Under the pieces are notes generated by a model that saw only the letters and a list, made by a program, of their open reading frames with translations, was not told where the DNA came from and searched no databases. Below, piece after piece: positions 46,102-64,000 of a stretch of 64,000 nt of DNA. The stretch comes from a virus: the IMG/VR virus record IMGVR_UViG_3300027733_000030, positions 32,001 to 96,000 of that record; one strand, written 5' to 3'. A program made the position numbers and the translations under genes. The stretch's first letter is position 1. Each line of letters opens with the position of its first letter.

Positions 46102-49100
46102 TTATCCTGGTGTTCCTACTTCTATAGGCATTGCTGCCGATTCACCCGCTGTGATTGTTGATTGAGATTCTTTCTGAAGATCTTTAACATAAACTCTAGC
46201 TAAATTATTAACTACTAATTCCCAGTTTAATGTATATGGGTGACCATTTTCAAAATACTCATCCCAACTGACTTGAGGCCATTCTGAAACTAGATTATAA
46301 ATTTCCTCTAAAATCTTCATGTAAACTAATATATTATATTTATTTATATTTTCTTGAGAAAGACCATATAAGGGATCTTGATCATCAAGATTATCAAAAT
46401 AATTTTCTTTTATAGTAGATTCTATATTGTTATATATTTCATTAAATTTTATTCTAAATGGCGATTGATCATACATATCATCTTGAACCTTAGATAGAAC
46501 TGTGTCTAAAGATCCTATGTTATCTCTGAATAAATTGTTAATATTTACTTTATGCTTACCTATATTTTCTTCAGGAAGATAATAAAATATTGTTCCAATT
46601 GTTCTTGAGAATTGATCCTTTACATAATTAGCGTCAATATTTTGAGATGCGCCTGCCTCGTAATCCTGTTCTAAGACTGCTGTTGTTCCAGTTCTGGTTG
46701 GATTAACTCTTAATACAAATATTTTATCCGTCAAAGCTTTAATCGTAAATAATTTAGCTTTACCACCAGGAGTGGAAACATCTAATAGACTTAAATTATC
46801 ATTTGCATTTATTGGATTAGTTGGAGTATCTGGATACCCAACTTTACCTTCCATGGTATTAATTTCGGAAGTGTTCATTCCATCAAAACGAACCTTAAAA
46901 GTAGCTCCGGATAATACATCTTCAACTTCAATTGTGTCACCGTCAACAAAGTGAATTACTTTACAAAGTATTTTGAATTGTGGTTCAAGTCCGGCTTTTT
47001 CTGGACCAAGTCCAGCTAATTTCAAAATTTTACCATGAACTAGTGCATTCTCATAACTAGTATATCTGACTAAATCTGTGATTTGACTTTCATTCCATCC
47101 AAGACTCTTGAATAAATCATCACTTCTGATGTATGCATTTCCTTCAGGTGTTCTGACTTTAGCTCTAACTCCAAGAATGCCTGGAAGTAGTGCTTTAGAA
47201 TGATATTTTCCTACAACCATTCCTTGATTATATGAAAGACCGGCATCCATTGGTTGACCATTTCTATTCAAATACTGCACATAGCATCCGTGTTGATCTA
47301 GTACCTTATCTCTAACCCAGCTCCAACCCTTCCATGCTAATTGGCCAACTAGTGGTCCTCCTATTGCTGCCCCAACAAGACCTGCAGGAGTAACTGCGCC
47401 CAATAGTGCACCGGCTGCCAATCCTCCCGCTAAGATTGCAAAACCCGGAGCTGCGCCCTGTCCTGTTGCTTGTCCCTGTTTTATTAGTTGATCTTTAACA
47501 TCTGGCATGCTTTGTGCAGTTTGATTAGCCATAACATCTTTAACTAACGCACTTGAGCCATGTGTAAATTGGAATCCACCTAATATTTGAGGAGAGAGCG
47601 CTTGGCCGAGAGCATCCATTGATATATTGCCGCCAACAGATATTCCAGAATTACCAGACTTAATTCTATCTAAATAGATTCTAGTATCGTTTCTAATCGT
47701 TTGAACATTCATCCAAGAATGGATCCAAGATGTCATGAACCATCTTGCGGGATCATTTACGGTAACTAAGGCATTTGGTGTTATGGAAGTAATGTAACCC
47801 AACTCTGCAGTAAAGTGATGTATTACCTGTTCTACTTCAAATATGCCATACATTCTTTCATAAACGTCGGCCAAATATATTAGATCGTGCGGTCTAATAT
47901 CTGAGTTTCCAATGACTATTAATTCTCCACCATATATGTCTTTGATAGATTCCTTAAGATGAGAGAGTGCAACTCTTCTTGCTGATAATTCATCTGGAAC
48001 TCCTTGGACGTTTTTTGCTACTCCTCTAAAAGTTTCCAATGGGTGCATTAGGGGGTGGAGGAATCCTGTAAATCCAGAACCAACCATATTGTCAAAGTAT
48101 ATTCCAGTTTCAACAGTTTTTTCTACTTGTCTTTCAGCGGGAGCGCCCTTATCTAGGGCAACCGTTACTGGGTATTTTCCGTCGGAAACTGCAGTTATTA
48201 CTGTAGCTACATTATTTATATTTTCTTGAATTTGATTAGATAGAATATGTGAGAAAGAACTTATGTAATGCAATCTTTGGAATGGTTCACGCACTTCCAT
48301 GACCGGTTCACCATATTCTCTAGTGAAAGGATTGTCTACAGCCCTAAGAAGTGTTCCTGGTCTGCCTAGCGAATAGTAAATAGAATCATTAAGTGCCTTA
48401 TTTAAAATGTTAGCTTGTTTTTTAAAATTACCTGCTTCAGAAAGCGCATATCCCATTTGTTGCATGGACAATTTAAACATTGACAAAAGACCAGTAAGTC
48501 CGTCAGATATAGCAGTAAAGATGGGTCCAATATTCGTATTCCAGAAATCATTGATTCCATCAACAACCTCACCAACAATATTAGTAGCACTATTGCCTTC
48601 ACCTCTAGTTGAAACTAATAGTTGTCTAAATTTATCTTGCTTACCTGGCTTAGCATAATCATTATATGGGTCGATAAATGCTCTAAATATTTTATCTACT
48701 GGTTTAAAACTCCATTGATCTTTTCCAGTTTTCTTTCTATCTGGCTTTAGAACTAACCAAGCTCTGGCATATGGATCTTCCCACATTCTCTGACGGAAAA
48801 TTCCAACCATTAAAAGGAATAATTGTTTTGGTGTTTTAATTTTTTTAACTAGTTCAGCTGTAAGAGTTGGACTTTCTGAATCGGAAGATAGACTGAACAT
48901 CAATGTATTGCTAAGTTTTGTGTTTTTTTCACTTAGGAAATTGTCATGGATTGCCCCTAGAGATTTAACGACAACCGCATTAAAGTAATCTATTAATCCA
49001 CCTTGATCAATACTTGCATCAATATAATTCTGCCTGGCAAATTCAATCGCTGCCTTATAGCTTTCATCACTAAAGGTGTCGGCGCTTGATGAATTAGTTT

Positions 49101-52100
49101 CATCGTTTACTGTATTAAGATTGGATGTAAAATCTGAACCTAAAAGTACTGCAAATTCATCTACTGCGCCTACTGTGCCACCTATAGAATTATTGAAGTG
49201 AGCTATGGGTGTATAGCCTGCATAATTAGATCCAGTAAGTATATTCTTATAAAAATCTGGAAATTCATTTTCGTTATCTGGATCTAAACTAAATGTGTCA
49301 AAAAATATTTTTTTAACACTCTCATACGTATGATAACCAAACCTAAATTGATCCCAAATATCTTCTGCCATTCTTAATGTTCTTCCATCGCCAGCAATGA
49401 CTGATACTGACGCATCAAAATTTTCGTCATAGTATGATCTAGCTTCAACACTAATTAAATCTAAAGGAGAATATACTTCAGCAAATGAAACTCTTCCAGA
49501 GCCTGTAGAGTTATCTGGCCCTGTTGTAGTTAATTCATCATCTAGTATTTGATAAAGATTATCTCTTCCCAGGGAACTGTAATCTGCATCTATTACAGCT
49601 TGAAAATATGTTTTTTGATCTCCCTCATTTATGACATTAAGCGGATTGCCGCCATATTGCAAGCCTTCAACGTTAGAAACTAATGAAGTGTCAATAGGAC
49701 TAAACCGAGTTAGCGAATTATTAAACGCATTAGAAATAGCACTTGTCCCAAAACCAAAATCTACGACAGGCGCGCTGGGGTCGATGAATGCTGACCCTGT
49801 TGCATAATTTGTAGAGCCTTCTTTTGGTTTGAACGATCCAAACCCAATGACTTGCCCCATTTCAGAGTCAATAATTTCACCAGTTTGATTTTTTAAGGAA
49901 AAGTTAACTGCTGGAGCAATAGATGAAGACACTACGCCAACTGGAGTTTCATCTGGCACAAAAGCCATATAGCATTCTTGCATAATTGGATAGGGTCTGA
50001 ATCCAGAATTTCTCCAGTTATTCATGTTTTTTATTCCATCATCTGTACCAGTAGCAGCAGAGACATCCATGTTTTCTTCATTAGAATTTCGTGTGATTAT
50101 ACTCAAGTAATAAGCTGCGTCCGGTGACACTACTGCGCTAGACAATTGGGACTGTTCATCATTGGTACTAATTGTTTTTTCATTACCCCATAAGAAATAT
50201 GCTGGACGACAAACTACTGCCCTTTTATTGTTTGGATTATAAACTAAAACTTTTCTAGACTTATAGTCTTTTACTGTTCCGTATAAATCTTCAAAGCCAT
50301 AATTAGATTTAAATTGACTAATAGTGTCTTCATCTGCTCCAATTTTACTTGTTTCACTTTGTGAGACTGGATGATATGGCCATTTCATAGCTATATAAAA
50401 TTGTTCATCTTCAGCTGTTGCCGGGGAGCCCCATTCTTGGTAGGTTAATTCTCCGTAGTTACCCTTTTGATATTCAAAAGAAAAATTATCATCAACATTA
50501 TTTGCAGCTATATTTCCTTCAGCGTTCCTTGACCCTAGCCCACTCATTCTAGGTAAGGGCATTTTAATTACTTTATAGTCTGGCATAAGGTTTAGCGCAT
50601 CAAAATTAAGCTGTGCTAGATTTAATGGACTATCAAGATTGATAGTATCGTCAGATGGAATAAGTGTTAATTTTGATTGTTCAAAGAAAATATACTCTAA
50701 ACTTTGAAGTTTTAATAAATTATTATAATAATCCTTATTACCTTCAGTGATGTGATCACCATCGCTATCATTCATAAACTGCTTAATATCTACAGCAATA
50801 TCTATAAAAGATGAATTAATAAGTTGATCTGAAGGAAGATCTTCATTAGCGGTAAAATATGGAAAACTGAATCTTGGGGGTAAATTCCCCAGTTGTTGAT
50901 GTTTACTCTCTTGATTAGGTCGACTGTCTTGCGTCCCACCGTTGGGGACTCCATATGGCAAGTGGAGGCCGACATTAACATAACCTTTAGAAACTGGTAA
51001 TTTAGCTAATATTTTAGTAGGAGCCGCTGGATCATAATACGTTGAAGATGGTTGCGCATAAAAGTTAATTACTTTTCCTACTACACTGGATGTCGGTGCG
51101 TATATACCACTTGAGGTTAACATGGATTGTGACATATCTTGAAATGTTTGACTTGGTTCAGAAGCTTGAAAGAATGCCGCGTAGTCAGCTAAAGGATTAG
51201 TATCTTTATTGATTTTATCTAAGATAGAAATTAAATCTTGATCAGGATTTTTCATTTGTGGTGCAATAATACCTAATTCTTCTGCTTTTTCTTGCCCAGG
51301 AAAACCAGTAGTAATTGGCACTACGCCAGATGTATATAGCCAATGTGGCTTACCGTAAAAAACTGTTGATCTATCCTCAAATGGTCTAACTGCAACGATA
51401 TAGTTTGGCAATAGTCTTGCGCACATTTCAAATAAATCCCAAACAGTTCTCATATAAGTTTGAGCTCTAAATGAAACCTCATCAAAACCGGGTAGGTCAT
51501 CATCTGAATTAGGCGATATAATTCCTAACGTTCTAAATAAATTTGTGCCACCTCTACCACGTATAACGCCAAGCAGTCCTGCACCTGCTACCGCCCCAAC
51601 ACCCATGCCGCCTAAAGCAGCGGCTCCAGCGGTTATTCCTCCGGCAAATAGGCCCTTAACTAATCCAGCTCTTCCATCTGAATTGACAAGTTGATTATCT
51701 TGCGTTAAGAAATCTAATGTATTATTACCACCGGTGTCCGATAACCCATAGTTCTCCATTTGACTAGATTCAATTAATTTATTCCAACTACTATCAGTTA
51801 ATCTACCCAGGTAACCATCCGTCCTGTCGTTATAGCTATCTTCTTTGACCAGAGAAGATGCTGTGGACCAACCGTCATCCAAGTCCCCCCCAAGGAATTG
51901 AGCTATACCTGTCCCGTTGCCTGGATAAATATTTCTTTTGAATATTTCAAGATCAACTTGGGCACAGAAATTGGAGAATAATTGACCAACCGCAGAGAGA
52001 GAATTTCCTCTATAATTTAGACTGAAACCTTCAGTTATGCCAACTGCTTTATTCATGAAACTATTATTGCTACCCGCAATACTAAATGCTCCAGTAATAC

Positions 52101-55100
52101 TATCTCTAATAGCATCATTCTTAGCTTGCTCACCAGTAGTTAATGGCTCATAAAGAATATTTCCAAAATGTCTAATACCAAATCTATTTTCTGAAAATAC
52201 TGTACCCCTTGTTGCGTGTGCTAAAGCTTCTCGAGTTCTGGATGCACCCATAGATAGAAGTCTAACCATTAAGTCTCTGGGTTCAGACATGTACATTCCA
52301 GTATCTACGCCGCCATCAATTTTTCCACTATCGCCTTTTTTATTTGTTGAATTCATTACAGCACCTAATTCAATTGCATCAGATTGAGCTGTAATTGTAA
52401 CTATTTCACCTTGTTCAATATTTGTAATAACTCCATTAAATATTGTTTGCAGTGAATTTGGATTAGAGCCATATCCTGATCTTAGGTGAACTCTTACTCC
52501 CGGCTTTAGTCTTATATTAGCAATGTCGACAATATATTCGTTCCTCATATGGCCAAGAATATTTCTTGACATATTTAATGTTCTATCAATAATAGAGCTT
52601 ATTCCCTCAGTCAAGGATAATGAATCATTGGAGTTATCGTCTAGATTAGGATTAAATATTTTACTTGATTCATTTTTTGTCAGCTTGCTATAAAGATTTG
52701 AAACTCTAAATATTAATGTATCGCCCAATAGATCTTCTGAGCTTACTACTGAAAAATCTATGATTGATTGTAATCCGTAAAAATTATCAAATAATTTAAC
52801 ACCGGCAAACATTCCACCTTCATCTATTAACCATAACATATAGGTTGGGAATGCTCTAATCATTCTTCCTGATATATCTCTATATGATGAATCAACCATC
52901 ATAGTTTCCCAATGTGACTGCATGTCTCCATTGTATGAATTCTGGTATTCAGAAATAGCTTTTGCACCTGGGACTCCAGTGTTAACTGTTGTATTTCCAG
53001 TTTCAGGAGTTTGAACATCTTTTAAGTAATTAGTCTGAAGTTTTATAACACCTGAATTTGTTCCATCATTTTCATTGTTAACTTTTTTGATATTATCTCC
53101 TCCAGCAGTGAGATAGAATCTTCCATTGGATCTGACTTGGTATCCAAAATGCGTACCTGCTGCGGTTTGTAAAATAGATGGTATTTTACCTTCCATAACA
53201 TCTTTTGGATCGGATGCGGGTATTGCAAAAATTTGTTTATGAAAATCAACTTCATCAGGATCAAAGCTAACGTATTCTTCATTTGGTAGACTGAAAGCTC
53301 CAGTTATAGCAGCTTCTATGGATGTTGCATTAGATGCACTATTGGGGGATAAATCACCTTGTTGAAAAGGAGCTGCAATAACATCTTCGAAATAGGGATT
53401 TATTTCACTAGTTTCTTCTGCAAAAGTGATAAAGTCTGTTAGTAATTGCACATTTGCAGAATTACTGAACTCGGTATCTCCAGTAACTACGTTTCTAAAT
53501 ATATGTATAAATCTAGATAATCCAATTTGATTTGCAATTATATAATCTTTTATTTGATTAACAATTTCTTCAGTGGTTGTTTCATCTGCAGAATTATTAT
53601 ATAAAGTAATAAATTCTAAAATTTTTGCAGTGATACCAAGTACATCATAACCTTCTCCGCCAACTCCACCGGCTCCGTTTGAATGCGTATCAAAATTATA
53701 ATCTTGAATCTTCTGATGCTGGGTACTAAAACTATTAACAACGTCTTTATCAAACATTTCAAAACTTCTAAAATAAAAATCTGGATCTAGATGCCCTACA
53801 ACATCGCCACCAGAATTTTTCACACTCAAAGGAAAATCTGGATAAGAATTAAACGTTCCCCAGAATTGTTTAATTCTTAAAAATGGATTCTTTTTAGTAC
53901 TAAATTGATCTATTAGTTCTTTCTGTTGCGTGCTGCTAAGTTCTTCACGTTTTTGCTGAAATATATCAAAGTCTATTAAACTTAATTGAACATCATACGC
54001 GTGCGGGTAATTGGGTATTGTGCTAACACTGTAATTTAGTGGGAGGACATATTTAATACCGCACAAGGCAGTAATGATATTTTTAATACCCAAAAAACCA
54101 ATGACTCCAGTGGCGTGTTCTAATCTAGCTAATCCAGAAATATGATCAAATACATTTTTTAGTTTGATTAATTCTTTTTCGCCAATAACAGTCATTGATA
54201 TATTGATATTGCTATCTCTACCACCAATATGTTGATACGTTGGTTCATCTTGCATCTGAATTTGAAGTTTAGCAAGACTATTTCCCATGGAAACAGTTAC
54301 TCCATTAACTATAACGGATTGTGGATCTAAGTCGACTTGTATCATGGGCACTTCCCATTCTTTAAATTGGAACGCCCCAGCTCTTTCTCGGGCAGCCTCC
54401 ATTAAAGATTGAATTGGTCCACTCTTAAAGAACCTTTCATACAAGGTTGCACTAAATGCTTGTGCTAACTCTTTTCGAACCTTTGCATCAACAGCTGCTC
54501 TTGTATCATCTGTTATTTCATCTGCGGGGATTCCAATTTTATCTAATTTCTCTTTAGTCATTCCTTCTCTTAAATAGTCTAAATAAGATGAAGGATTTTC
54601 TGAAATTCTTTCCAAAGAAGTTCTTACAGCATTTAGTGATGTTTTTTCTAAGTATTTACCCTGAAAAATATAAGTAGCTTCTTCTGGATACAATAAAGAA
54701 TATGAATTATAACCATTCTTCAACCACTCTTGTTGTGCTGAAGTAACATTCTTGTTTTCTGCAATGAATGAGGCCACAAAATAGGCATAGGCTTGCTCTG
54801 CCATATTGTCAGAATTAATACCTGCCGTCAATATATTTACTGAGTCTTTGACAATATCTTTTGTTGCTTTGGAGAATGAACTTGAAAGTGATATGTCTTG
54901 GACTTCTTGTAGAGATACTCCATATGAAGTGCTTTGATTGATATCTATGCCTATACTAGACAATAAAGATTCCCATGTACCTTGGCCTAAATCTGTGTAC
55001 ATCTTTTCTTGTTTAGTTCTAAATGAAGATGTATCTGGTAAAAATATTTTTGTTTGGGTTTCCGCTGGGGCAAATAGGGATATATTATTTCCATTACGCC

Positions 55101-57090
55101 ATTCTGATATTACATTTATATTAATTGCACTATCAAATGCTCCAGATTGAGGAATCGTAGGAGTAGGCTCTGGTTGGGCATTGGGGTCTACAATCCCTAT
55201 TCCAAAACCAAAATCTATTCCTGTTTTTACAGTATTGTCTGCTTCTTTTACATCAGATTTTTTTAGTAAAAATTCTTCGTTGACATAATCATGCAGATGC
55301 CCTGCCGCTTTACCCATATATTGACGATACTTACCCCAGTGTATTGCTTGATTAAAATCTTTAATCATTGGAAGAAATGGTTGATGATTAAAATTCAAAA
55401 GTTCAAGATCAACCGCTAGGGCGAATGGATAATTAGGAATAGTGGAAACGGTCATGCTAGAAAGTGCTACTGCAGTTATTCCATGAACAACATTTAAGTA
55501 ATGATTCTTAATAGGAAGAAACGGAGAATATTTAAATGCTGCGACTAGTCCTCTCAGTGAAGAAAGAAATTTATCTATTTTTATTTCTGAATCTCCACCA
55601 TTTTTAAAGTCAATTTTAAATGTATCATTTAAATCTATTTGAGAAGCATTGTCTATTGACAATCCCCAAATTTCTTCATAGTTTGGAAAGAATAATCTCA
55701 TCCTAACACTAGTCTCTTTATAGCCAGAATTAAATTTTGGACTATTCTTTTGTCTAATTGCTGCTCCAGTAAGACTGCCAGTCTTGAAAGATGAATTAAC
55801 ATCTATTGATATAGGTGGAACATAAAAATTAGATGCACCTAATCTTAAGTGAAATATATCTGGAACGTTGGGAGCAATATTTGCTCTAAATGGAGAAGTC
55901 TCAAGAACATTTTTAATACGTTGTGATGTATTTGTAAATTTGTAAGCCATTTCAAAAATGGCTTTACCTTCTCTAGTTATACCAAAAGCTTTTTCTAGTG
56001 ACCTGGCAAAATCTTCAGGATTATTTAAAGTATCTTCTTCTCCGCCACCTTTGCCATTGTTAGAATAATCTCCAACTACTGCTAGTGCATCAACTAGGAA
56101 CGTTGTTAAGCTTGGAAAATAATAGGCAATTGACGCAAAAGCTAAAGGATCTTTTTTTAATTGCTGTACAGCTTCAGTCAATGAGATTAACCATGGCAGA
56201 TCTACTTCTGGGTTGATTACATTATCCGCAGAAGCTTTTAGGGTATCTTTACTTCTTAACCTTTTCTTAGCAAATTCAGATATTTCGTAAGCGTATGACG
56301 CTAAATTTAAAAGTCCTATGTCTTCCATTTTGCTAAATAGCATTGAGGAATTCGTGTCACTTAAATCTTTTATTGATTCACTAATTTTAGAAAATACTCG
56401 AAAATAAGATGTAGATGTATTAGTAGAATCTCTATTTCCAAAACCCGCACTCAATAATGCATCCCTGGGGTCATCTATATTAGGGCGAGCTTTAGATACA
56501 AAATTAAGAAAATCTAAATAGACTTGATCTTCCGGATTACTATCTTCTAACTTTTTTTCATCTTCAGAAGATTTAATCTGTTCAATGTTAGCTATTTCAG
56601 CTAGAACTGTATCATCAATATTTCTTCCATTTGCAGTAGTATTCCATAGCTGTAATCTGGCTAGTACCTTGCCCGCTAAAAGCTTTGTAATATTAGGGTA
56701 ATAACCTGTATAAGCGTACGTTGTAATAAAGTGATAAATTACATCGCTTTCGCTCTGCAGATATGGGTTAGCAATGTTGGTCGCATTTTGAACATAAGTA
56801 TTATACTCATCTATAATAATTGCTGTCTGTGAAGGAATTCCAACTATAAAAGTAGAAACAGCTATCCTATAGGCAACTAGCGCGTAGCTATCGCTTTCGC
56901 CATACTCAAGAAGATCTTTACCCTTATATTCATATTGGGCCAAACCACCTGGTGAACCATCATTAAAAAATCGAAATAATTCATCAGGACTAGTGCTTGG
57001 GTTGGATAATAATTGCGTTACCTGTTCATATAGGGCGGGATGTTCAACAACGTACTTTAGTACATTTTTAGATATTGTATTAATAGCCAT
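46102..57090 (-). CDS. 3662-aa multidomain baseplate hub (gp27/gpD-like) with C-terminal thermonuclease domain
   Basis: LKPGVRVHLRSGYGS...IFNGVI and ELIVIGNSDIRPHD...GIFEVEQVIHHF hub motifs; C-terminal VDGDT...VRFDGMNTSE...DQFSRTIG. Confidence 0.75.
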   Translation of the reverse strand: MAINTISKNVLKYVVEHPALYEQVTQLLSNPSTSPDELFRFFNDGSPGGLAQYEYKGKDLLEYGESDSYALVAYRIAVSTFIVGIPSQTAIIIDEYNTYVQNATNIANPYLQSESDVIYHFITTYAYTGYYPNITKLLAGKVLARLQLWNTTANGRNIDDTVLAEIANIEQIKSSEDEKKLEDSNPEDQVYLDFLNFVSKARPNIDDPRDALLSAGFGNRDSTNTSTSYFRVFSKISESIKDLSDTNSSMLFSKMEDIGLLNLASYAYEISEFAKKRLRSKDTLKASADNVINPEVDLPWLISLTEAVQQLKKDPLAFASIAYYFPSLTTFLVDALAVVGDYSNNGKGGGEEDTLNNPEDFARSLEKAFGITREGKAIFEMAYKFTNTSQRIKNVLETSPFRANIAPNVPDIFHLRLGASNFYVPPISIDVNSSFKTGSLTGAAIRQKNSPKFNSGYKETSVRMRLFFPNYEEIWGLSIDNASQIDLNDTFKIDFKNGGDSEIKIDKFLSSLRGLVAAFKYSPFLPIKNHYLNVVHGITAVALSSMTVSTIPNYPFALAVDLELLNFNHQPFLPMIKDFNQAIHWGKYRQYMGKAAGHLHDYVNEEFLLKKSDVKEADNTVKTGIDFGFGIGIVDPNAQPEPTPTIPQSGAFDSAININVISEWRNGNNISLFAPAETQTKIFLPDTSSFRTKQEKMYTDLGQGTWESLLSSIGIDINQSTSYGVSLQEVQDISLSSSFSKATKDIVKDSVNILTAGINSDNMAEQAYAYFVASFIAENKNVTSAQQEWLKNGYNSYSLLYPEEATYIFQGKYLEKTSLNAVRTSLERISENPSSYLDYLREGMTKEKLDKIGIPADEITDDTRAAVDAKVRKELAQAFSATLYERFFKSGPIQSLMEAARERAGAFQFKEWEVPMIQVDLDPQSVIVNGVTVSMGNSLAKLQIQMQDEPTYQHIGGRDSNINISMTVIGEKELIKLKNVFDHISGLARLEHATGVIGFLGIKNIITALCGIKYVLPLNYSVSTIPNYPHAYDVQLSLIDFDIFQQKREELSSTQQKELIDQFSTKKNPFLRIKQFWGTFNSYPDFPLSVKNSGGDVVGHLDPDFYFRSFEMFDKDVVNSFSTQHQKIQDYNFDTHSNGAGGVGGEGYDVLGITAKILEFITLYNNSADETTTEEIVNQIKDYIIANQIGLSRFIHIFRNVVTGDTEFSNSANVQLLTDFITFAEETSEINPYFEDVIAAPFQQGDLSPNSASNATSIEAAITGAFSLPNEEYVSFDPDEVDFHKQIFAIPASDPKDVMEGKIPSILQTAAGTHFGYQVRSNGRFYLTAGGDNIKKVNNENDGTNSGVIKLQTNYLKDVQTPETGNTTVNTGVPGAKAISEYQNSYNGDMQSHWETMMVDSSYRDISGRMIRAFPTYMLWLIDEGGMFAGVKLFDNFYGLQSIIDFSVVSSEDLLGDTLIFRVSNLYSKLTKNESSKIFNPNLDDNSNDSLSLTEGISSIIDRTLNMSRNILGHMRNEYIVDIANIRLKPGVRVHLRSGYGSNPNSLQTIFNGVITNIEQGEIVTITAQSDAIELGAVMNSTNKKGDSGKIDGGVDTGMYMSEPRDLMVRLLSMGASRTREALAHATRGTVFSENRFGIRHFGNILYEPLTTGEQAKNDAIRDSITGAFSIAGSNNSFMNKAVGITEGFSLNYRGNSLSAVGQLFSNFCAQVDLEIFKRNIYPGNGTGIAQFLGGDLDDGWSTASSLVKEDSYNDRTDGYLGRLTDSSWNKLIESSQMENYGLSDTGGNNTLDFLTQDNQLVNSDGRAGLVKGLFAGGITAGAAALGGMGVGAVAGAGLLGVIRGRGGTNLFRTLGIISPNSDDDLPGFDEVSFRAQTYMRTVWDLFEMCARLLPNYIVAVRPFEDRSTVFYGKPHWLYTSGVVPITTGFPGQEKAEELGIIAPQMKNPDQDLISILDKINKDTNPLADYAAFFQASEPSQTFQDMSQSMLTSSGIYAPTSSVVGKVINFYAQPSSTYYDPAAPTKILAKLPVSKGYVNVGLHLPYGVPNGGTQDSRPNQESKHQQLGNLPPRFSFPYFTANEDLPSDQLINSSFIDIAVDIKQFMNDSDGDHITEGNKDYYNNLLKLQSLEYIFFEQSKLTLIPSDDTINLDSPLNLAQLNFDALNLMPDYKVIKMPLPRMSGLGSRNAEGNIAANNVDDNFSFEYQKGNYGELTYQEWGSPATAEDEQFYIAMKWPYHPVSQSETSKIGADEDTISQFKSNYGFEDLYGTVKDYKSRKVLVYNPNNKRAVVCRPAYFLWGNEKTISTNDEQSQLSSAVVSPDAAYYLSIITRNSNEENMDVSAATGTDDGIKNMNNWRNSGFRPYPIMQECYMAFVPDETPVGVVSSSIAPAVNFSLKNQTGEIIDSEMGQVIGFGSFKPKEGSTNYATGSAFIDPSAPVVDFGFGTSAISNAFNNSLTRFSPIDTSLVSNVEGLQYGGNPLNVINEGDQKTYFQAVIDADYSSLGRDNLYQILDDELTTTGPDNSTGSGRVSFAEVYSPLDLISVEARSYYDENFDASVSVIAGDGRTLRMAEDIWDQFRFGYHTYESVKKIFFDTFSLDPDNENEFPDFYKNILTGSNYAGYTPIAHFNNSIGGTVGAVDEFAVLLGSDFTSNLNTVNDETNSSSADTFSDESYKAAIEFARQNYIDASIDQGGLIDYFNAVVVKSLGAIHDNFLSEKNTKLSNTLMFSLSSDSESPTLTAELVKKIKTPKQLFLLMVGIFRQRMWEDPYARAWLVLKPDRKKTGKDQWSFKPVDKIFRAFIDPYNDYAKPGKQDKFRQLLVSTRGEGNSATNIVGEVVDGINDFWNTNIGPIFTAISDGLTGLLSMFKLSMQQMGYALSEAGNFKKQANILNKALNDSIYYSLGRPGTLLRAVDNPFTREYGEPVMEVREPFQRLHYISSFSHILSNQIQENINNVATVITAVSDGKYPVTVALDKGAPAERQVEKTVETGIYFDNMVGSGFTGFLHPLMHPLETFRGVAKNVQGVPDELSARRVALSHLKESIKDIYGGELIVIGNSDIRPHDLIYLADVYERMYGIFEVEQVIHHFTAELGYITSITPNALVTVNDPARWFMTSWIHSWMNVQTIRNDTRIYLDRIKSGNSGISVGGNISMDALGQALSPQILGGFQFTHGSSALVKDVMANQTAQSMPDVKDQLIKQGQATGQGAAPGFAILAGGLAAGALLGAVTPAGLVGAAIGGPLVGQLAWKGWSWVRDKVLDQHGCYVQYLNRNGQPMDAGLSYNQGMVVGKYHSKALLPGILGVRAKVRTPEGNAYIRSDDLFKSLGWNESQITDLVRYTSYENALVHGKILKLAGLGPEKAGLEPQFKILCKVIHFVDGDTIEVEDVLSGATFKVRFDGMNTSEINTMEGKVGYPDTPTNPINANDNLSLLDVSTPGGKAKLFTIKALTDKIFVLRVNPTRTGTTAVLEQDYEAGASQNIDANYVKDQFSRTIGTIFYYLPEENIGKHKVNINNLFRDNIGSLDTVLSKVQDDMYDQSPFRIKFNEIYNNIESTIKENYFDNLDDQDPLYGLSQENINKYNILVYMKILEEIYNLVSEWPQVSWDEYFENGHPYTLNWELVVNNLARVYVKDLQKESQSTITAGESAAMPIEVGTPG

Positions 57091-57098
57091 ATATTATC

Positions 57099-57542
57099 CT
57101 ATTTAAACATCATATTATTTTTAACGATATTATTAATTTTATTGCTGGAAGATCCAGTTGCTGAACTAGAAGTGTAATTATCCATTATACTATATTTTTT
57201 ATCAATGGGAGGCATATTAAAATTAAACCTATGATTATTATGAGATATTTGATTTTTATTATATCTGGCTTTTTGAAGTGACTTATTATCATATCCCCTG
57301 CCATTCATTTGTAGGACAGTTGAGGAACTATGCTGTAGTCCTTCGTAGGAACCTTTTAGTTTGTCTGAATTGGATTGTCTAATATTATTCTTAGACTCAC
57401 CAACAGCTTTTGTCGGAGATGATTTACTGGAGGAAATTTTAGCAGAGTAGTTATCCGCATTTTCTTTTCTGTGGGAAGTGTCCCTGGGGCGACTAGCTGC
57501 GTCACTGAGCCTTTTATTCTGATCGCCTGCACCAAAAATCAT
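57099..57542 (-). CDS. basic, low-complexity hypothetical protein
   Basis: ORF track; Ser/Lys/Asn-rich. Confidence 0.55.
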   Translation of the reverse strand: MIFGAGDQNKRLSDAASRPRDTSHRKENADNYSAKISSSKSSPTKAVGESKNNIRQSNSDKLKGSYEGLQHSSSTVLQMNGRGYDNKSLQKARYNKNQISHNNHRFNFNMPPIDKKYSIMDNYTSSSATGSSSNKINNIVKNNMMFK

Positions 57543-57554
57543 AAATACCTAACC

Positions 57555-60500
57555 TTAATAGTTGGCTGCCATTTCTTTGTATGGATCATGAGCCACATCG
57601 GGGATTCTATTATACATAGTAGTACTCATATTGCCATTAACCAACCCTCCGGCAGCAGCATTAAATCTTCTTACGGTGTCTTGATCTCCATATAGGTTTA
57701 CTTTATAGCTAACCCCTGAATCATAACCGGGACCACTAAAGGTTCCTATTTGTGGTACTCTATTTGGGTAACCACTCTCGTATGCCGAACCGCCAGGAAG
57801 TAAAGGGGGACCAGTCATATCATCATGTGTTCTATCTCTAATCGCTGTATAGGCTAAGCTGCCTGCTATTAAAGCTCCAATTGCTAAGGTACCTTTTCTA
57901 ATAGTCGGATTTTTAAAGAGATCTTTAAGATCTCCCATTTTTTCCCCTATTCTCTTATATACAGCCTTATTCTTTACGAGTCCATCATCTAATTCACGAA
58001 CAGACCTAATCATATCATCCGTTAGACCATGATCATCTCCGAATTCTCGTATAGCATCTTCCATGTTGGCAATGGTGCCGTTTTTCATTTCCGTATCTAT
58101 AAATCCACTATCTTCTAATTCTCTCTTCTTCATTTGAGCTCTTATTACGGCAGCTTGGTGGTTTGCATCTTTTCTGACCATTTCATCAGCAATTTGTTCA
58201 GACTCATTTGTTAAAGCCCTAAGAGTATCAGTATGTTCGTGGCTTGCAGCTATTACATCAAACATATTTTTTGATCCATTATCCACTCTTTTTTGAGCTT
58301 CATTAATAGCTTTTAATCTTTTTTCAGCTTCTTGAGTAAGTTCTTCCATAGTAGTTTTATTGCCCAAGCTACCTTGAACTTCATTAGCATAGTCTTGATG
58401 AAAACCTTCATAAAATTTTGCTCTTCTATAATCTCTTACTCGTTGAATCTGTGATGCTGTTTGTTGAGCTTCATCTGACATTGTTGAATCGTATGCTGAA
58501 CTTAAGTGCCTAAGGCCACCGATATCTACCCTGGAACCTACTCCGCGGGTTTGTTTATCTATAGAGTTTACAAGATCTGCCATGTTAACATTTTCAAGTT
58601 TTGATGCTTGACCAATGTCACGTAATACTTTTTCTCCAACACTATCCAACATAGCTGCGTGGTTATGTTTTTCGAGTTCAGTCATCTCCTTAAGATGATT
58701 ATTTGTAACATTAAAAATTTGTTCTAAAGAATCTTTATGAGTTTCAAGAATTTTTCGCGCAACTGATTCAGCTTCAGCGGATGTTGAAGTTGAAGCTAGA
58801 ATGTCATCTGCGCCAATACGAGATATTGAAGCCCTTCTTACTGAATCTAAATACGCTTCATATCTAGTTCCTACGTCATGTATTTTTGAAATAGATGAAT
58901 ATTTATGATCGGCGCCTAGACCAATTTTTTCTATTAAAGCTTTTTTTATTTTATCTTCATCATTAGTAGCAGAAAGGGCTTTTAGTTCTTCTATAAGTTT
59001 ATCTAAATCAACTGTTGTTGCGTGTTGATTCCTTTGTGCGTCTTGCATGCCTGTAATCATATTATCTAGAATTAATTTAGTATCACTACCTTTAACTCTT
59101 TCCCTTAATAAGAATTCATCTATACCTAAAAGATTTTCTTGATCCCCCCCCACTGCTCTAGAATAACCAATCATTTTGCCAAGGTTAGCCATACTTTTTT
59201 CTCCAAAAATATCAAGAGTAATACCTTTGTCCCCAGCGCCAGCAAGTCCCAGTTCTCCTAATGCTTTTTGAATGCCTTGATCTTTATAAAATATAGCATC
59301 TGTTTTAGATAACATTTCCCCAACTGCCCCATGCAGTTTTCTTGTTCCAGCAAAGTTTACAGAAAGGTCAATTGCTGTTTCCTGTGATAGCATTCCTATT
59401 TTATAATTTTGAAGCATGTAGTCTTGGACTTTTTTATCTGCGCCCTTTAAAAAAGCTTCATATTGATTTAATGATGAACCTACGGCCATAGATCTGTTCA
59501 CATATAGACCAAGTATATCTCCACCCTCTATTGCCTTTTTCATACCGACTTGTTCAAATGCAGATGCAAAAGCTGCCCTTAATGTAGGATCTTTTTCAAA
59601 TCCGTTAACTTCCATTAAATGCATCATGTGTTCAAATTGACTTAATTGTCTTTGTTTTCCTTCAACAAAATAAGTGCCTGCTTTAGCAGTTTCTAATTGC
59701 TTTAAAACTGCTGGATTAACGTTATTCTGCTTCATTACATCCAACAGGTCACTTCCCATATCAAAAGCGCCAGATTTAGTAAATGCTTTGAATACACCAT
59801 TCCTTGTATATGCTGGTTCTACACCTATATCCGCAACTGTTAAAGCCGAAGATCCATATTTAGCTATTCTTGCTTGCATATCTGGAGTTAGTCTTTGAAG
59901 TTTTGTTTTTCCGGTCTGTTCAAGTCTTTGATATACATCATAAATTCCTTGTTCAAAATAATCTGCAGAAAGTGGTTTTTCAACTACTTTTCCTTTTTTG
60001 ATTTCTGTATGTGTTTTATCTAATACTTCTTGCAAATAAGTATATGTTCTTCTTTTTTGGGCATTAAGTGATGTGTCGGCTGCTAGTTCGTCTAGCGCAT
60101 TTCTAAAATGTCTTACTGCAAATACATCTTCTCCGCCACCAAACAAACCTCTAATAGTTTCTTGATCCATATTCATTCGAGCAAAAATTAATTCTTCAGG
60201 ACCTGATGGTTGACGGAAAATTGAAAATCCTAAACGATTCATTCCCGCATTATCTTGATACGTCAATAGCTTAGGTAGACCTTTGTCGTCTAAGTCAAAT
60301 CCACCAAGTGCATGTCTATAAGGTCCAATGGCATCAGCCGAAAACATCATCTTGTGGCCACTAACTCTGAATTTTAGGATATCATGATCGATATCTCCTA
60401 CTCCAGCCATAGATATTCTGTCATAACCTCTGCCTTTATTGAGTAACATTTTTCCTTCTTTTGTTCCCAAAACTCCAGCTTCACTGTCAATAGCAAACCG

Positions 60501-62372
60501 GTGAGTTTCTGGCAAAACAGATTGAACAAAATTGCCCTTTGTTCGGAATGCTTCAGTTGCAAAGAATGTATGAAGCATATTCATCATTGTTGGATTTTGA
60601 TTAGGACTGACTCCGCTTTGCATCATTTCTATAATTGCATTAGCAAATTCCCTATTTCTAGCTGCAGACCCGCGTGCGTAAGAGGGAAGATGTTCTATAT
60701 TTCTTTCTGCAGCTTGTTCTAACATAGCTTTTACCCTTTTGGGAACTGTACCACTATTAATGGCCCCCTCAAATTCTTGCAGTACAGTTTGAGATCTTTT
60801 TTCCATAGCTTCTATTGTATTAACATCAGCAAAAACTTCTGGGTGGAATGCTGCTGAAACCGGATCCGCATAAACAGCTTCTCTACCAGCGCCCATACCG
60901 CTTAAGTTAAGAATATTAGTTTTACCCGCAAAACCTAATTCGCCCTTAAATCCCATTTTACTAACAATCATTGAATATTTATTTAATTCTTTACCTTCAA
61001 ATTCTGTAACATTAAAAGCAGTTTTGATATCCCCGTACTCCAAGGCGTGACCTCGGCCAGTAACCTGTTCTAATCCACCCTTACTGCCAGCCCTTTTTAC
61101 TTGTCTCTCAATATTTCTTACTTGTTTTAATTCTATTGATAATGCTTCTTTTGCTTCCGCTGTTAAAGTTTTATCTGTTTTTAATTGTTTTTCTATTTGA
61201 TTTGCCCTCACGCCCATAGTTTTTACATAATTATTTAAATATTTGGCATTCAATAAGTCAGACCCGTCATACGCATACTCAATATTATCAAACATGTCTT
61301 TAACAATTTTTTTTCTAGTAGCGTCACCATTGACAAAATGTTTGTCTAGATGTTTCATTAATTGATCACTAGCAAATCTATTGCCAACTTTTCCTGTTGC
61401 ATCATAAGAAAAATTACCCGATTTAATTACCCTCATGAGTTCAACTCTATCGGTTTTATTTAAATTCTTCATTACATTGCCAATAAAATCTTCTGGATCA
61501 GCTTTAGCGTAATATGATCGTAAAGCTTTGGCTTTCGTTGTTTTGCCGCCAAAATCATAAGCTCCACCTAATTCTTTGTGAGCCATTTTTTTCAAAAGTT
61601 CATATTGAGGATCAAGAACTAGCATGGATTGACCAAATTCTGGAGAAGTTTTTTTTATAAAGCTTGCTAAATCGCCTCCTGCTAAAGAAATTTCTCTTTC
61701 AGATGCTAAAGATCTGAATCTTTTTCCAATCTTCATTAATTTATCTGCTAGTTTTGTAGAATCAGCTCCTGCCATTATTTTTCCAAATGTTTCCGGATCT
61801 AACATATCGTGTCCAGTAACTGATAATAATAAATTAGATTGATAACTACTCAGCATTTTGTTTCCAACTCGCATATTGATAACTCGTGCACCTTCGTCAT
61901 CCATGATGGTAATTCCATGCAGGGCGCCACGTTCTCTTAGCGTTTTAATTCTATTAGCAATAGCTTTAGTGCCGCCCTTTTCTGCATGCATTGTGAGAAG
62001 ATCTACTTGCATATCTTTTATCATACTCACGTCAATGCCTGCATTCTGCAGGGTTTGGATTTCGCCAGCGTTAAAACCTTTAGATCTATTTCTAATGTCT
62101 TGCATGATTTGAGCCATACCACTAACCTTATTTCCTAATTTAGGCGTAGTTAATGGATTGACCTGAGTAACGTGCAGAGCTGCTGCAGCGTTAAATGCTC
62201 TTTCAACGCTAGTAAAATTTTCACCAGTGGCGGTTAAAACATATTTAACTTTATCACCATCTGGTTCTATTTTTATGACACCACCCATTCCATAGGTAGT
62301 TCTCATTAATGCTGATCTTCCAGCTGCCATTCTTTCTGGCAGCGTCTGATACATTTTATTAATATTTACCAT
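57555..62372 (-). CDS. 1605-aa virion-module protein with a putative single-subunit two-barrel RNA-polymerase-like core and a C-terminal TM segment
   Basis: YDG(368-370), QVTGR..K450, K476, LGGFDLDD(689-696), RQP(720), LGLYVN(954-959), AID(1000-1002); TM GTLAIGALIAGSLAY. Confidence 0.5.
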   Translation of the reverse strand: MVNINKMYQTLPERMAAGRSALMRTTYGMGGVIKIEPDGDKVKYVLTATGENFTSVERAFNAAAALHVTQVNPLTTPKLGNKVSGMAQIMQDIRNRSKGFNAGEIQTLQNAGIDVSMIKDMQVDLLTMHAEKGGTKAIANRIKTLRERGALHGITIMDDEGARVINMRVGNKMLSSYQSNLLLSVTGHDMLDPETFGKIMAGADSTKLADKLMKIGKRFRSLASEREISLAGGDLASFIKKTSPEFGQSMLVLDPQYELLKKMAHKELGGAYDFGGKTTKAKALRSYYAKADPEDFIGNVMKNLNKTDRVELMRVIKSGNFSYDATGKVGNRFASDQLMKHLDKHFVNGDATRKKIVKDMFDNIEYAYDGSDLLNAKYLNNYVKTMGVRANQIEKQLKTDKTLTAEAKEALSIELKQVRNIERQVKRAGSKGGLEQVTGRGHALEYGDIKTAFNVTEFEGKELNKYSMIVSKMGFKGELGFAGKTNILNLSGMGAGREAVYADPVSAAFHPEVFADVNTIEAMEKRSQTVLQEFEGAINSGTVPKRVKAMLEQAAERNIEHLPSYARGSAARNREFANAIIEMMQSGVSPNQNPTMMNMLHTFFATEAFRTKGNFVQSVLPETHRFAIDSEAGVLGTKEGKMLLNKGRGYDRISMAGVGDIDHDILKFRVSGHKMMFSADAIGPYRHALGGFDLDDKGLPKLLTYQDNAGMNRLGFSIFRQPSGPEELIFARMNMDQETIRGLFGGGEDVFAVRHFRNALDELAADTSLNAQKRRTYTYLQEVLDKTHTEIKKGKVVEKPLSADYFEQGIYDVYQRLEQTGKTKLQRLTPDMQARIAKYGSSALTVADIGVEPAYTRNGVFKAFTKSGAFDMGSDLLDVMKQNNVNPAVLKQLETAKAGTYFVEGKQRQLSQFEHMMHLMEVNGFEKDPTLRAAFASAFEQVGMKKAIEGGDILGLYVNRSMAVGSSLNQYEAFLKGADKKVQDYMLQNYKIGMLSQETAIDLSVNFAGTRKLHGAVGEMLSKTDAIFYKDQGIQKALGELGLAGAGDKGITLDIFGEKSMANLGKMIGYSRAVGGDQENLLGIDEFLLRERVKGSDTKLILDNMITGMQDAQRNQHATTVDLDKLIEELKALSATNDEDKIKKALIEKIGLGADHKYSSISKIHDVGTRYEAYLDSVRRASISRIGADDILASTSTSAEAESVARKILETHKDSLEQIFNVTNNHLKEMTELEKHNHAAMLDSVGEKVLRDIGQASKLENVNMADLVNSIDKQTRGVGSRVDIGGLRHLSSAYDSTMSDEAQQTASQIQRVRDYRRAKFYEGFHQDYANEVQGSLGNKTTMEELTQEAEKRLKAINEAQKRVDNGSKNMFDVIAASHEHTDTLRALTNESEQIADEMVRKDANHQAAVIRAQMKKRELEDSGFIDTEMKNGTIANMEDAIREFGDDHGLTDDMIRSVRELDDGLVKNKAVYKRIGEKMGDLKDLFKNPTIRKGTLAIGALIAGSLAYTAIRDRTHDDMTGPPLLPGGSAYESGYPNRVPQIGTFSGPGYDSGVSYKVNLYGDQDTVRRFNAAAGGLVNGNMSTTMYNRIPDVAHDPYKEMAANY

Positions 62373-64000
62373 TATCTAATCCCTGCTGAAACATCAATAC
62401 TTTGTGAACCAAAAGGATTTATGACTGGAGTAACACTTCCAGAAAATCCAGAACCATTCATTAATCCACGTAACTTATATAGCGTGTCTTGTCTGTCTCC
62501 ACTTTTTCCAAATTGAGGAAAGCTTGGATTAGCTAAATTAGCTTCACGGATCTGTTGAGGATAGTAACCCATCTGAGACATTTCTAGACCCATTGATTCT
62601 CCCGTTTTAATTTTAACTTGATCCATATTTGTATTTGGATGCCAACCTTCCCACGATAAATCGGGAAGTTCATGGCGGGTAAAGTATTCGCCTAAATCTG
62701 GTTTTTTCTCAACATCCATGCCCCAGGATGCCTCATAAATTCTTCTTTCAAGTCGCCCAGCAGTTGAGAGTATTTTACCTCTTTCTGCTTCTGGAGCATT
62801 AATCATTGCTTTAAAGTGTTCCCTTTTTCTTTTAGGTATAGATAGAGATAGTGTATCTAAATCTTTTCCGTAAAGATCAGCTCCATACATTGTTCTTTTT
62901 GCAGCCATATTATATTGCATTGCTGCTTTTCCGTCACCAGAAGCTTTAGCCATAGTCTCTAATCTTTTACTCTTTACATAACTTAAAATGTCAGAATATT
63001 CATCAAGAGCCAATTCTTTTTTTCTCTTCATTGGGATGAATCTGTCACCAGTTACAAGTTCTGATGTTTTTCCGTATGCAGACGCTGCTAGTCCAGTAGT
63101 TACTCCAACTGCTGTTCCCAGTAATTTAGCTTTTGCCGTTCTTCCGAATAAAGATCCAGCTACACCTAATGCGCTGGCTGCGGCTATTGGATTTCTTTGT
63201 GTAGACTTATTGATCATTGGCTTAATATAACTTTCAAATGGTCTTTGCCATTCTGGGAATGTTGCGCCATAAACATTTTTTCTTTCCCAGTCTTCAGTAG
63301 CCGTTCTTTTTCCAATAGCCTTACTTAATACAAAGTTATCTGAGTGAGCTAAATATTCTCCCATTCTTCCTGCACCAAATTTCAATGGATGTTGCCCCAT
63401 TGCTTCAGCAGATGATCCTTTATATTTATAATCTGTAAATTCATTTTTAGTTGTCATACTTTGAACTTGAGATCTTATGTCTGCTACTTGATTTCTTTCA
63501 GCTGGACCCAAATTCATTTTGTCCATTTTTTTGTCTAATATTTTATACTGTTGCGAATACGGTGCAACATCACCTAATATTTTTAGTTGATCTAACATCC
63601 CATATTGCCCAGTGGAGTCTGGATGAAGTCTATTGAATCTTTCATAGCCTACTCCTGGTAATCTTAATTCACCTTCTTGTACTTTCGTAAAAGGATCCCC
63701 TCTAGTGAAATCTGTAAAATATTCAGATCCAGGAAGAAAAGGATACTTTTCACCCATAGTATTTTTAATTGGGTTTAAATAGTCAATGTTAGTTCTTTCT
63801 TTCGGAATAAATCGCCTAACAATTTCCGAAAATTCAAAGTTGCCAACTCCCTCTTTATTTCCCAGTGGTGCATCTCCTAGTCCACCAAGATTAAGATCCC
63901 AGAATGCCCTAGTTGTTCCGTACGCTTTGGATGCTGACTGCAGAACGGATCTTTGTGGTTGGAAATCTGCTTGTCCAAACCCTAATTTCTTTCTTGCATT
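62372..64000 (-). CDS. C-terminal part of a large tape-measure-like protein (5' end outside the window)
   Basis: Frame stays open for 81 codons upstream of the track's ATG, to the window edge; Ala/Gly-rich hydrophobic segment; RLPGVGYE motif. Confidence 0.65.
   Translation of the reverse strand, partial: NARKKLGFGQADFQPQRSVLQSASKAYGTTRAFWDLNLGGLGDAPLGNKEGVGNFEFSEIVRRFIPKERTNIDYLNPIKNTMGEKYPFLPGSEYFTDFTRGDPFTKVQEGELRLPGVGYERFNRLHPDSTGQYGMLDQLKILGDVAPYSQQYKILDKKMDKMNLGPAERNQVADIRSQVQSMTTKNEFTDYKYKGSSAEAMGQHPLKFGAGRMGEYLAHSDNFVLSKAIGKRTATEDWERKNVYGATFPEWQRPFESYIKPMINKSTQRNPIAAASALGVAGSLFGRTAKAKLLGTAVGVTTGLAASAYGKTSELVTGDRFIPMKRKKELALDEYSDILSYVKSKRLETMAKASGDGKAAMQYNMAAKRTMYGADLYGKDLDTLSLSIPKRKREHFKAMINAPEAERGKILSTAGRLERRIYEASWGMDVEKKPDLGEYFTRHELPDLSWEGWHPNTNMDQVKIKTGESMGLEMSQMGYYPQQIREANLANPSFPQFGKSGDRQDTLYKLRGLMNGSGFSGSVTPVINPFGSQSIDVSAGIR

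Follow-up and report, generated by a model that had tools for sequence, protein, structure and literature searches.

The 1605-aa open reading frame at 57555–62372 on the minus strand of the window (the whole 64,000-nucleotide stretch analysed here) is very probably the gene for a single-chain protein related to cellular RNA polymerase, in which one barrel is re-threaded and the metal loop is one residue short. More broadly, the evidence inclines us to the view that a widespread, uncultured and probably actinobacterial clade of ~200-kb myophages uses, for transcription, as many as three paralogous single-chain two-barrel RNA polymerases acting in cascade. One of them would be tail-borne; every one would be re-threaded, with one psi-loop lost, and most would have a DxDD loop.

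The gene can be divided into a predicted polymerase (aa ~1–1120), a helical stalk (aa ~1120–1490), a hydrophobic segment and a conserved C-terminal domain, and the region that first drew attention (59340–61290) corresponds to aa ~361–1011. All of its features lie on the minus strand. The N-terminal lobe contains a KxxKR motif (K214, K217, R218; 61719–61733) that is at least 90% conserved in the 1605-aa family and invariant in the 850-aa paralogue. Barrel B (DPBB-B, aa 369–503; 60864–61268) follows the canonical order (D369-G370, R440, K450, K476, D503) and contains a helical hairpin insert at aa 376–430. An inter-barrel helical connector (aa 504–620; 60513–60863), which may be clamp-like given its position, leads to barrel A (DPBB-A, aa 624–735; 60168–60503). 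Barrel A carries the putative metal-binding acidic loop GGFDLDDK (D693, D695, D696; 60282–60305), a DxDD loop one residue shorter than DxDGD, and downstream of it an RxP element (R720-Q-P722 with E727; 60192–60215). Further along are a bridge-helix-like helix (aa 953–977, with G955, N959, R960 and Q970; 59442–59516) and a trigger-loop-like helix (aa 997–1005, with E998 and D1002; 59358–59384). The motifs from which a preliminary description had read a two-barrel polymerase were all present where it placed them, including GGFDLDDKG at 60279–60305, and their conservation was far beyond chance. The same description had the protein end in a transmembrane helix. A hydrophobic segment is present (aa 1493–1511; 57840–57896) and may be a membrane anchor, but it is moderate (Kyte-Doolittle 19-mer maximum 1.33) and is followed by a conserved domain of ~100 aa with a GPPLLPGG motif (57558–57839), probably a virion-assembly handle.

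Searches recovered more than 200 homologues of the 1605-aa protein (104 and 172 sequences, plus 158 loci) with ~20–93% identity, and conservation was counted over 206 non-redundant homologous cores. The acidic-loop aspartates were invariant (D693 in 203/203, D695 and D696 each in 202/202), as were R720, P722 and E727 (each 202/202). The loop consensus was G[GT][FYMH]D[LFMNH]DD, the triad was spaced DxDD and not DxDxD in all 202 cores, and R720-P722 lay 24 aa past D696 in 202/202; no conserved RxP upstream of the acidic loop within the barrel was found in the alignment. Both the shifted third aspartate and the RxP behind the loop, as originally noticed, are fixed features of the family. The basic residues of barrel B were conserved (K476 in 196/197, K450 in 186/190, R440 in 184/189), and so were D369 (186/187), G370 (97–99%) and R625 (198/205). 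G955, N959 and D1002 were at least 90% conserved, in keeping with the bridge-helix-like and trigger-loop-like motifs proposed earlier. Two proposed motifs held only in part: K476 was conserved but not the "SM" of SMxxxxxxxK, and in QVTGR the arginine R440 was kept, with T438 two residues before it in 146/189 cores but Q436 in only 117/189. The remaining alignment columns were mostly variable, and the invariance of catalytic-type residues across 20–93% identity suggests, at the level of sequence, an active enzyme.

Pfam, PHROG and PDB sequence and profile searches with the 1605-aa protein gave nothing significant, and no tape measure (TMP) profile was matched in Pfam or PHROG. The RdRP/YonO family profiles (PF05183/phrog_4291) detected the 0305phi8-36 control but matched neither the 1605-aa protein nor anything in two complete relatives. 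By tblastn against 50,697 annotated phage records (cultured phages), the 1605-aa protein and both of its paralogues had no match. ESM Atlas features were uninformative, with every score ≤0.82 and the matches to TMP clusters below 0.8. The single match in a GTDB scan was a phage-like contig inside a Cyclobacteriaceae MAG, a probable misbinning. One homologue (P0222, 1820 aa) has both a YDFDD loop and, apart from it, a GDFDADG string. At eight loci (L015, L018, L021, L024, L029, L052, L074 and L077) the gene is broken into two or three frames, the break often falling near aa 750–780; such splits are probably assembly errors or frameshifts, and in L015, L018, L021, L024, L052 and L077 the intactness of close relatives led us to read them as assembly frameshifts. 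Alternatively, the gene may be recurrently split in nature after barrel A.

AlphaFold2 models of aa 1–1120 (pLDDT 89.2, pTM 0.90) and aa 355–745 (pLDDT 90.3, pTM 0.85) were compared with known structures. Foldseek against the PDB gave no match at E ≤ 0.001; the best natural match was crAss gp66 (E 7e-3, prob 0.80), and QDE-1 was also among the best. In VIA-align, aa 1–1120 placed RDR2 and QDE-1 first (Z 5.3–6.8, 430–513 residues) and aligned over 584 residues with gp66 (Z 3.8). The core matched RDR2 with Z 9.3 (rmsd 4.0, 232 residues) and QDE-1 with Z 8.0–8.5 (240–250 residues), and the core rmsd for QDE-1/RDR2 ranged from 4.0 to 6.0. This polymerase group took rank 1 among 48,161 chains in both wide VIA searches. 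The Z scores (5–9) are modest and near the chance level for helical matches; long matches were confined to single-chain two-barrel polymerases (RDR2, QDE-1, crAss gp66), and most rival matches covered only 50–90 residues, mainly one helical hairpin. P23-45 gp96/gp64 and cellular RNA polymerases were absent from the top rows among the matches listed. In BFVD, the only significant matches were three uncharacterised proteins of uncultured phages (851–1141 aa, E 1e-8 to 1e-10), which are probably compact paralogues. The models match two-barrel polymerases across both barrels, as the preliminary description had anticipated, and indicate that the N-terminal part belongs to the two-barrel polymerase superfamily, with two predicted DPBB-type barrels.

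The canonical DPBB chain runs b1-b2-b3-RxP-b4-b5-helix-DxDxD-b6, and the barrel order is 1-5-2-4-3-6. In the model of barrel A, b1 (626–630), b2 (665–671) and b5 (674–677) are followed by a helix (679–689) and the acidic loop, after which come b6 (697–706), b3 (712–719, ending at R720) and b4 (729–733). From secondary structure and covariation, the most likely order is b1-b2-b5-helix-DxDD-b6-b3-RxP-b4, a non-circular rewiring that would use two new hairpins and keep RxP beside the acidic loop. The assignment of the six strands and of six neighbour pairs was predicted before covariation was computed by mean-field DCA and compared with 12 column shuffles, which ignore phylogeny. The top pair was D629–K674, and all six predicted pairings were among the top strand pairs. 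The six-neighbour joint score was 18.8 in the 1605-aa family against a null maximum of 11.7 (12 shuffles ignoring phylogeny) and 16.5 in the paralogue family against a shuffle maximum of 12.6 (phylogeny again ignored). Among single pairs, b1||b5 and b1-b6 exceeded the null in the 1605-aa family and b3-b4 tied with it, while b3-b4, b3-b6 and b1-b6 exceeded it in the paralogue family; b2-b5 and b2||b4 were not above shuffles in either. Weak covariation was seen for R625–F692, R625–Q721 and E631–G691, and for V505/S506–S723, as would fit a single metal site at which the aspartates, lysines and RxP arginine meet. The pairings in barrel B were canonical. Most QDE-1 core alignments end at aa ~705 (QDE-1 1020–1025), just past the acidic loop, as expected if the last two strands of barrel A lack a sequential counterpart. 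We rejected a simple circular permutation for barrel A, since b1 (R625) keeps the first position and is paired in parallel with 674–677, giving the order b1, b2, b5, b6, b3, b4. Barrel segments reordered in silico gave no hhalign signal, in any order, against the ME3 gp36 family or the YonO-like protein of 0305phi8-36.

The same centre recurs in compact, free-standing proteins, mostly of 800–900 aa. The record that holds the window (G000) is 126 kb, ~60% complete, and ends before the arm in which they lie; complete relatives have two of them in the early arm, with the same motif order. One is an 877-aa gene without annotation in the opposite-strand arm of the nearly complete relatives G001 (204.9 kb) and G002 (216 kb), located at L178:9897–12530 (plus strand) and G002:71924–74557. 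It keeps the motif order of the 1605-aa protein, with a DxDD loop followed by RSP. The catalytic set is invariant in its family of at least 224 members, 160 of the 163 members of the compact paralogue family read DxDD and then RxP, and hhalign aligned it to the 1605-aa core over 304 collinear columns (prob 69.5, E 4e-5). Of the 12 viral contigs >165 kb that bear the tail gene, 11 also carried the 877-aa paralogue, and a reverse search added two more genomes with both. A weak match to phrog_4291 in barrel B (E 0.05) was its sole link to known families.

A third paralogue of 837–1119 aa (hhalign 99% to the second) was found in four genomes, 38–71% identical, at G001:157320–160061, G002:58348–61707, L236:2919–5429 (minus strand) and L238:3256–5853 (plus strand). 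It has the textbook triad WDQDGD, yet its RSP is downstream. This combination settles the register, in which DxDD corresponds to DxDGD without its glycine, and shows that the rewiring does not depend on the change in the loop. In G014, whose tail protein is 58% identical to the 1605-aa protein, the compact paralogue reads PDLDD and then RNP, and DxDGD is therefore confined to some lineages. At its N-terminus the G002 copy of the third paralogue is longer by ~200 residues, which include an HxD motif, putatively 2OG-Fe(II)-oxygenase-like by eye. The occurrence of one centre, in one order, in compact stand-alone proteins argues for a working enzyme (predicted).

The phage is a myophage, with sheath, tube-like genes, a hub-type gene and a baseplate wedge flanking the 1605-aa ORF. 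Across 81 loci, wherever the flank is present, tube-like genes and a pair of chaperone-sized genes precede a ~2200-aa gene and the 1605-aa homologue, after which come a ~150-aa gene and the hub; L085 (Cyclobacteriaceae-binned) differs downstream. The start of the 1605-aa gene overlaps the upstream stop (TAATG), indicating translational coupling to a 2206-aa gene whose 3' end lies at 62372–64000 (minus strand). That gene is a homologue of the 0305phi8-36 virion protein gp145, and the 1605-aa gene therefore occupies the slot of gp146, which is a virion protein by mass spectrometry and owes its assignment as tape measure chiefly to its length (PMC2147016). The gene does precede the hub, as the preliminary description had it, but by synteny it is this gene and not the upstream one that fills the tape-measure slot of 0305phi8-36. 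It is followed by a 147-aa gene (57099–57542, minus strand), found in all relatives with the flank, and by the 3662-aa hub-type gene (46102–57090, minus strand; phrog_20474, E 5e-120) in the slot of gp147. Within the hub-type protein, a GGDLDDG string occurs at aa ~1734, and near the C-terminus there is a nuclease-like segment (SNase-type by eye).

In the same slot, the Acinetobacter phage ME3 has gp36, an unannotated 1603-aa protein (L088:16409–21220, plus strand) with motifs in the canonical order (DG 522, K632/K639, REP 1174, D1217/D1219/D1221), invariant in 12 homologues; judged by these motifs, it is a candidate virion RNA polymerase in a cultured phage. The slot in the Moorella phage MTATph1 (L086:18278–25891) holds CDS27, with a DEDD exonuclease-like domain (phrog_192, E 5e-11). 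A similar DEDD exonuclease-like motif was seen by eye in 0305phi8-36 gp146 (L087:17771–21700), which is annotated as tape measure. No homology of the 1605-aa protein to gp146, ME3 gp36 or the MTATph1 slot protein was detected, nor any C-terminal homology to gp146 or ME3 gp36. The slot looks like that of a virion protein with exchangeable cargo.

WhiB was encoded in 4/4 complete relatives, which suggests an actinobacterial host. A 286-aa sigma70-like factor with a region 4 match (G000:12598–13458, minus strand) lies 517 bases before the window, so host RNA polymerase is probably used for later genes. The phage encodes its own PolIII-type polymerase, primase and helicase. Near the terminase region is a 1173-aa protein without a Pfam match (G000:116033–119554, minus strand).

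We consider it probable that the 1605-aa protein is a DNA-dependent RNA polymerase, active and virion-borne, with which the phage transcription cascade starts; its place in the virion is probable from operon position and slot equivalence. The N-terminal ~1120 residues would form a catalytically competent single-chain two-barrel enzyme, with barrel B giving the basic residues R440, K450 and K476 together with D369, and barrel A giving the three Mg-binding aspartates of the shortened DxDD loop plus R625 and R720. In the non-canonical threading of barrel A, the RxP hairpin would come after the acidic loop and occupy its usual place in space. The gene would be expressed late, with the tail genes, and its product would be built into the virion via the C-terminal stalk or anchor and ejected with the DNA. 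The ejected polymerase would transcribe a pre-early block of short genes separated by terminator, T-run and TAG cassettes. This block would include a compact paralogous polymerase, starting a phage-encoded cascade, and host RNA polymerase with the phage sigma-like and WhiB factors would take over later.

Such cassettes, each a terminator hairpin, a T-run and xxxxxTAG, form arrays between small genes in a GC-rich block at L246:7570–13230 (G014 125.6–131.2 kb) and G002:50480–55730. In G014, the 5.6 kb immediately upstream of the compact paralogue hold 11 strong plus-strand hairpins with T6–7, eight of which are followed by GAGGATAG, and the block has 47–50% GC compared with 36% nearby. Six cassettes with ATGACTAG lie 2.6–8 kb upstream of the third paralogue in G002, where a second CTAG-stem hairpin often follows. 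No array was found in G001, one complete relative, or by a plus-strand cassette search in the record of the window, which stops short of the paralogue arm. The cassettes are candidate promoters, which one or another of the paralogous polymerases may use.

Four other readings were weighed against an active virion-borne RNA polymerase. The protein could be a two-barrel nucleotidyl transferase that is active but uses a different template or makes a different product (RNA-dependent, primase-like, PolD-like DNA-synthesising or template-independent), the altered loop reflecting altered chemistry. Its nearest folds are the RdRPs QDE-1 and RDR2, three paralogues per genome exceed the obvious need for transcription, and DxDD is not the canonical triad. 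We nevertheless regard this as unlikely. The RxP arginine is linked to ribose selection, and R720, which stands in its place, is invariant; the bridge and trigger elements are kept, some paralogues have DxDGD on the same scaffold, and the phage already has a PolIII-type polymerase, primase and helicase. An active RNA polymerase that is not packaged and works late in the cytoplasm or at the membrane would fit the undetectable homology to virion proteins proven by mass spectrometry. It is an unlikely reading as well, given the translational coupling, the fixed place among tail genes, the ~480 C-terminal residues that the free paralogues lack, and a slot equivalent (gp146) that is a virion protein.

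We give little credence to a catalytically dead polymerase fold reused as a tape, ejection or DNA-binding pilot protein, although the third aspartate is shifted, RxP is displaced and the slot cargo is unrelated in other phages (the exonuclease-like domain of MTATph1). Exactly the catalytic positions are invariant in more than 200 sequences, and 160/163 compact stand-alone paralogues share the DxDD...RxP centre. Because these paralogues use the same rearranged centre, the dead polymerase considered in the preliminary description is disfavoured, and its other suggestion, a permuted polymerase, gains. It is very improbable that the protein lacks two barrels and resembles polymerases in motif and fold by coincidence. 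Low Z and a non-significant Foldseek E against the PDB would fit such a coincidence; against it, the same polymerase group came first in four VIA searches, over 230–500 residues compared with 50–90 for most unrelated proteins, and over ~800 aa the motifs remain collinear.

All cellular-type RNA polymerases are regarded as sharing two invariant marks, the DxDxD loop and the double-psi barrel, and searches key on them; the discovery of P23-45 gp96 relied on such a motif search (PMC10770324). If our reading is true, the proteins described here would be the first active RNA polymerases to depart from the DPBB topology as well as from the DxDxD signature. Their activity would reveal the extent to which the universal transcription core can be rebuilt, and would mean that whole families escape motif surveys. 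The family has a built-in control in its DxDGD and DxDD paralogues on the same scaffold. Tail-delivered RNA polymerases would extend to contractile-tailed phages, and the work would point to the overlooked canonical-motif candidate ME3 gp36 and to compact polymerases with candidate promoters. In a literature search of incomplete coverage, we found no paper on a DxDD triad, FDLDD or a re-threaded or permuted catalytic barrel in such enzymes, and the available part of the PMC10770324 supplements does not mention ME3 or FDLDD.

The best structural matches were QDE-1 and RDR2 (PF05183; 2J7N, 7Y7P, 7EU1, 7W84), which the protein resembles from the N-terminal lobe to the trigger-loop region, with the DG, R..K, K, bridge-helix G..N and trigger-loop A.D motifs in order. 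Those enzymes are eukaryotic and RNA/DNA-templated and have DxDGD with RxP before it, and they differ from our protein at 9–13% identity with no HMM match. In phi14:2, a crAss-like phage, gp66 (PDB 6VR4) is likewise a single-chain two-barrel RNA polymerase and is virion-packaged, but it has a DFDxD motif and is a podophage ejection protein of 2166 aa. YonO-like polymerases (0305phi8-36 gp99; phrog_4291) are also single-chain phage two-barrel enzymes, whereas gp99 has RSP ~50 aa before DTDGD, is non-virion, and shows no profile match to the 1605-aa family. With gp146 and ME3 gp36 the protein shares its place between the gp145 homologue and the hub and a C-terminal hydrophobic segment, but the two-barrel motif was not found in gp146 and homology to either protein was not detectable. 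Because triad spacing and motif order fail and no profile matches, we would not file the 1605-aa protein under the canonical two-barrel families, and we presume that it works like gp96 or gp66.

Virion two-barrel RNA polymerases are already known. In P23-45, gp96 is a tape-measure-fused virion RNA polymerase with DFDGD, and gp64 is its non-virion paralogue (PMC10770324). By tblastn there was no match to P23-45. Compared to gp96, which lies within a 5002-aa siphophage tape measure, the protein described here belongs to a myophage and has 1605 aa, and it differs in its DxDD loop, in the RxP after the loop and in having up to three paralogues. It resembles gp96 as a predicted single-chain two-barrel enzyme, N-terminal in a tail-module protein with a membrane segment. 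The two systems may also share a non-virion paralogue in the pre-early region and repeated motifs upstream of pre-early genes, and the cassette arrays resemble the P23-45 plan, in which the non-virion enzyme is encoded within a short pre-early block that the virion enzyme transcribes.
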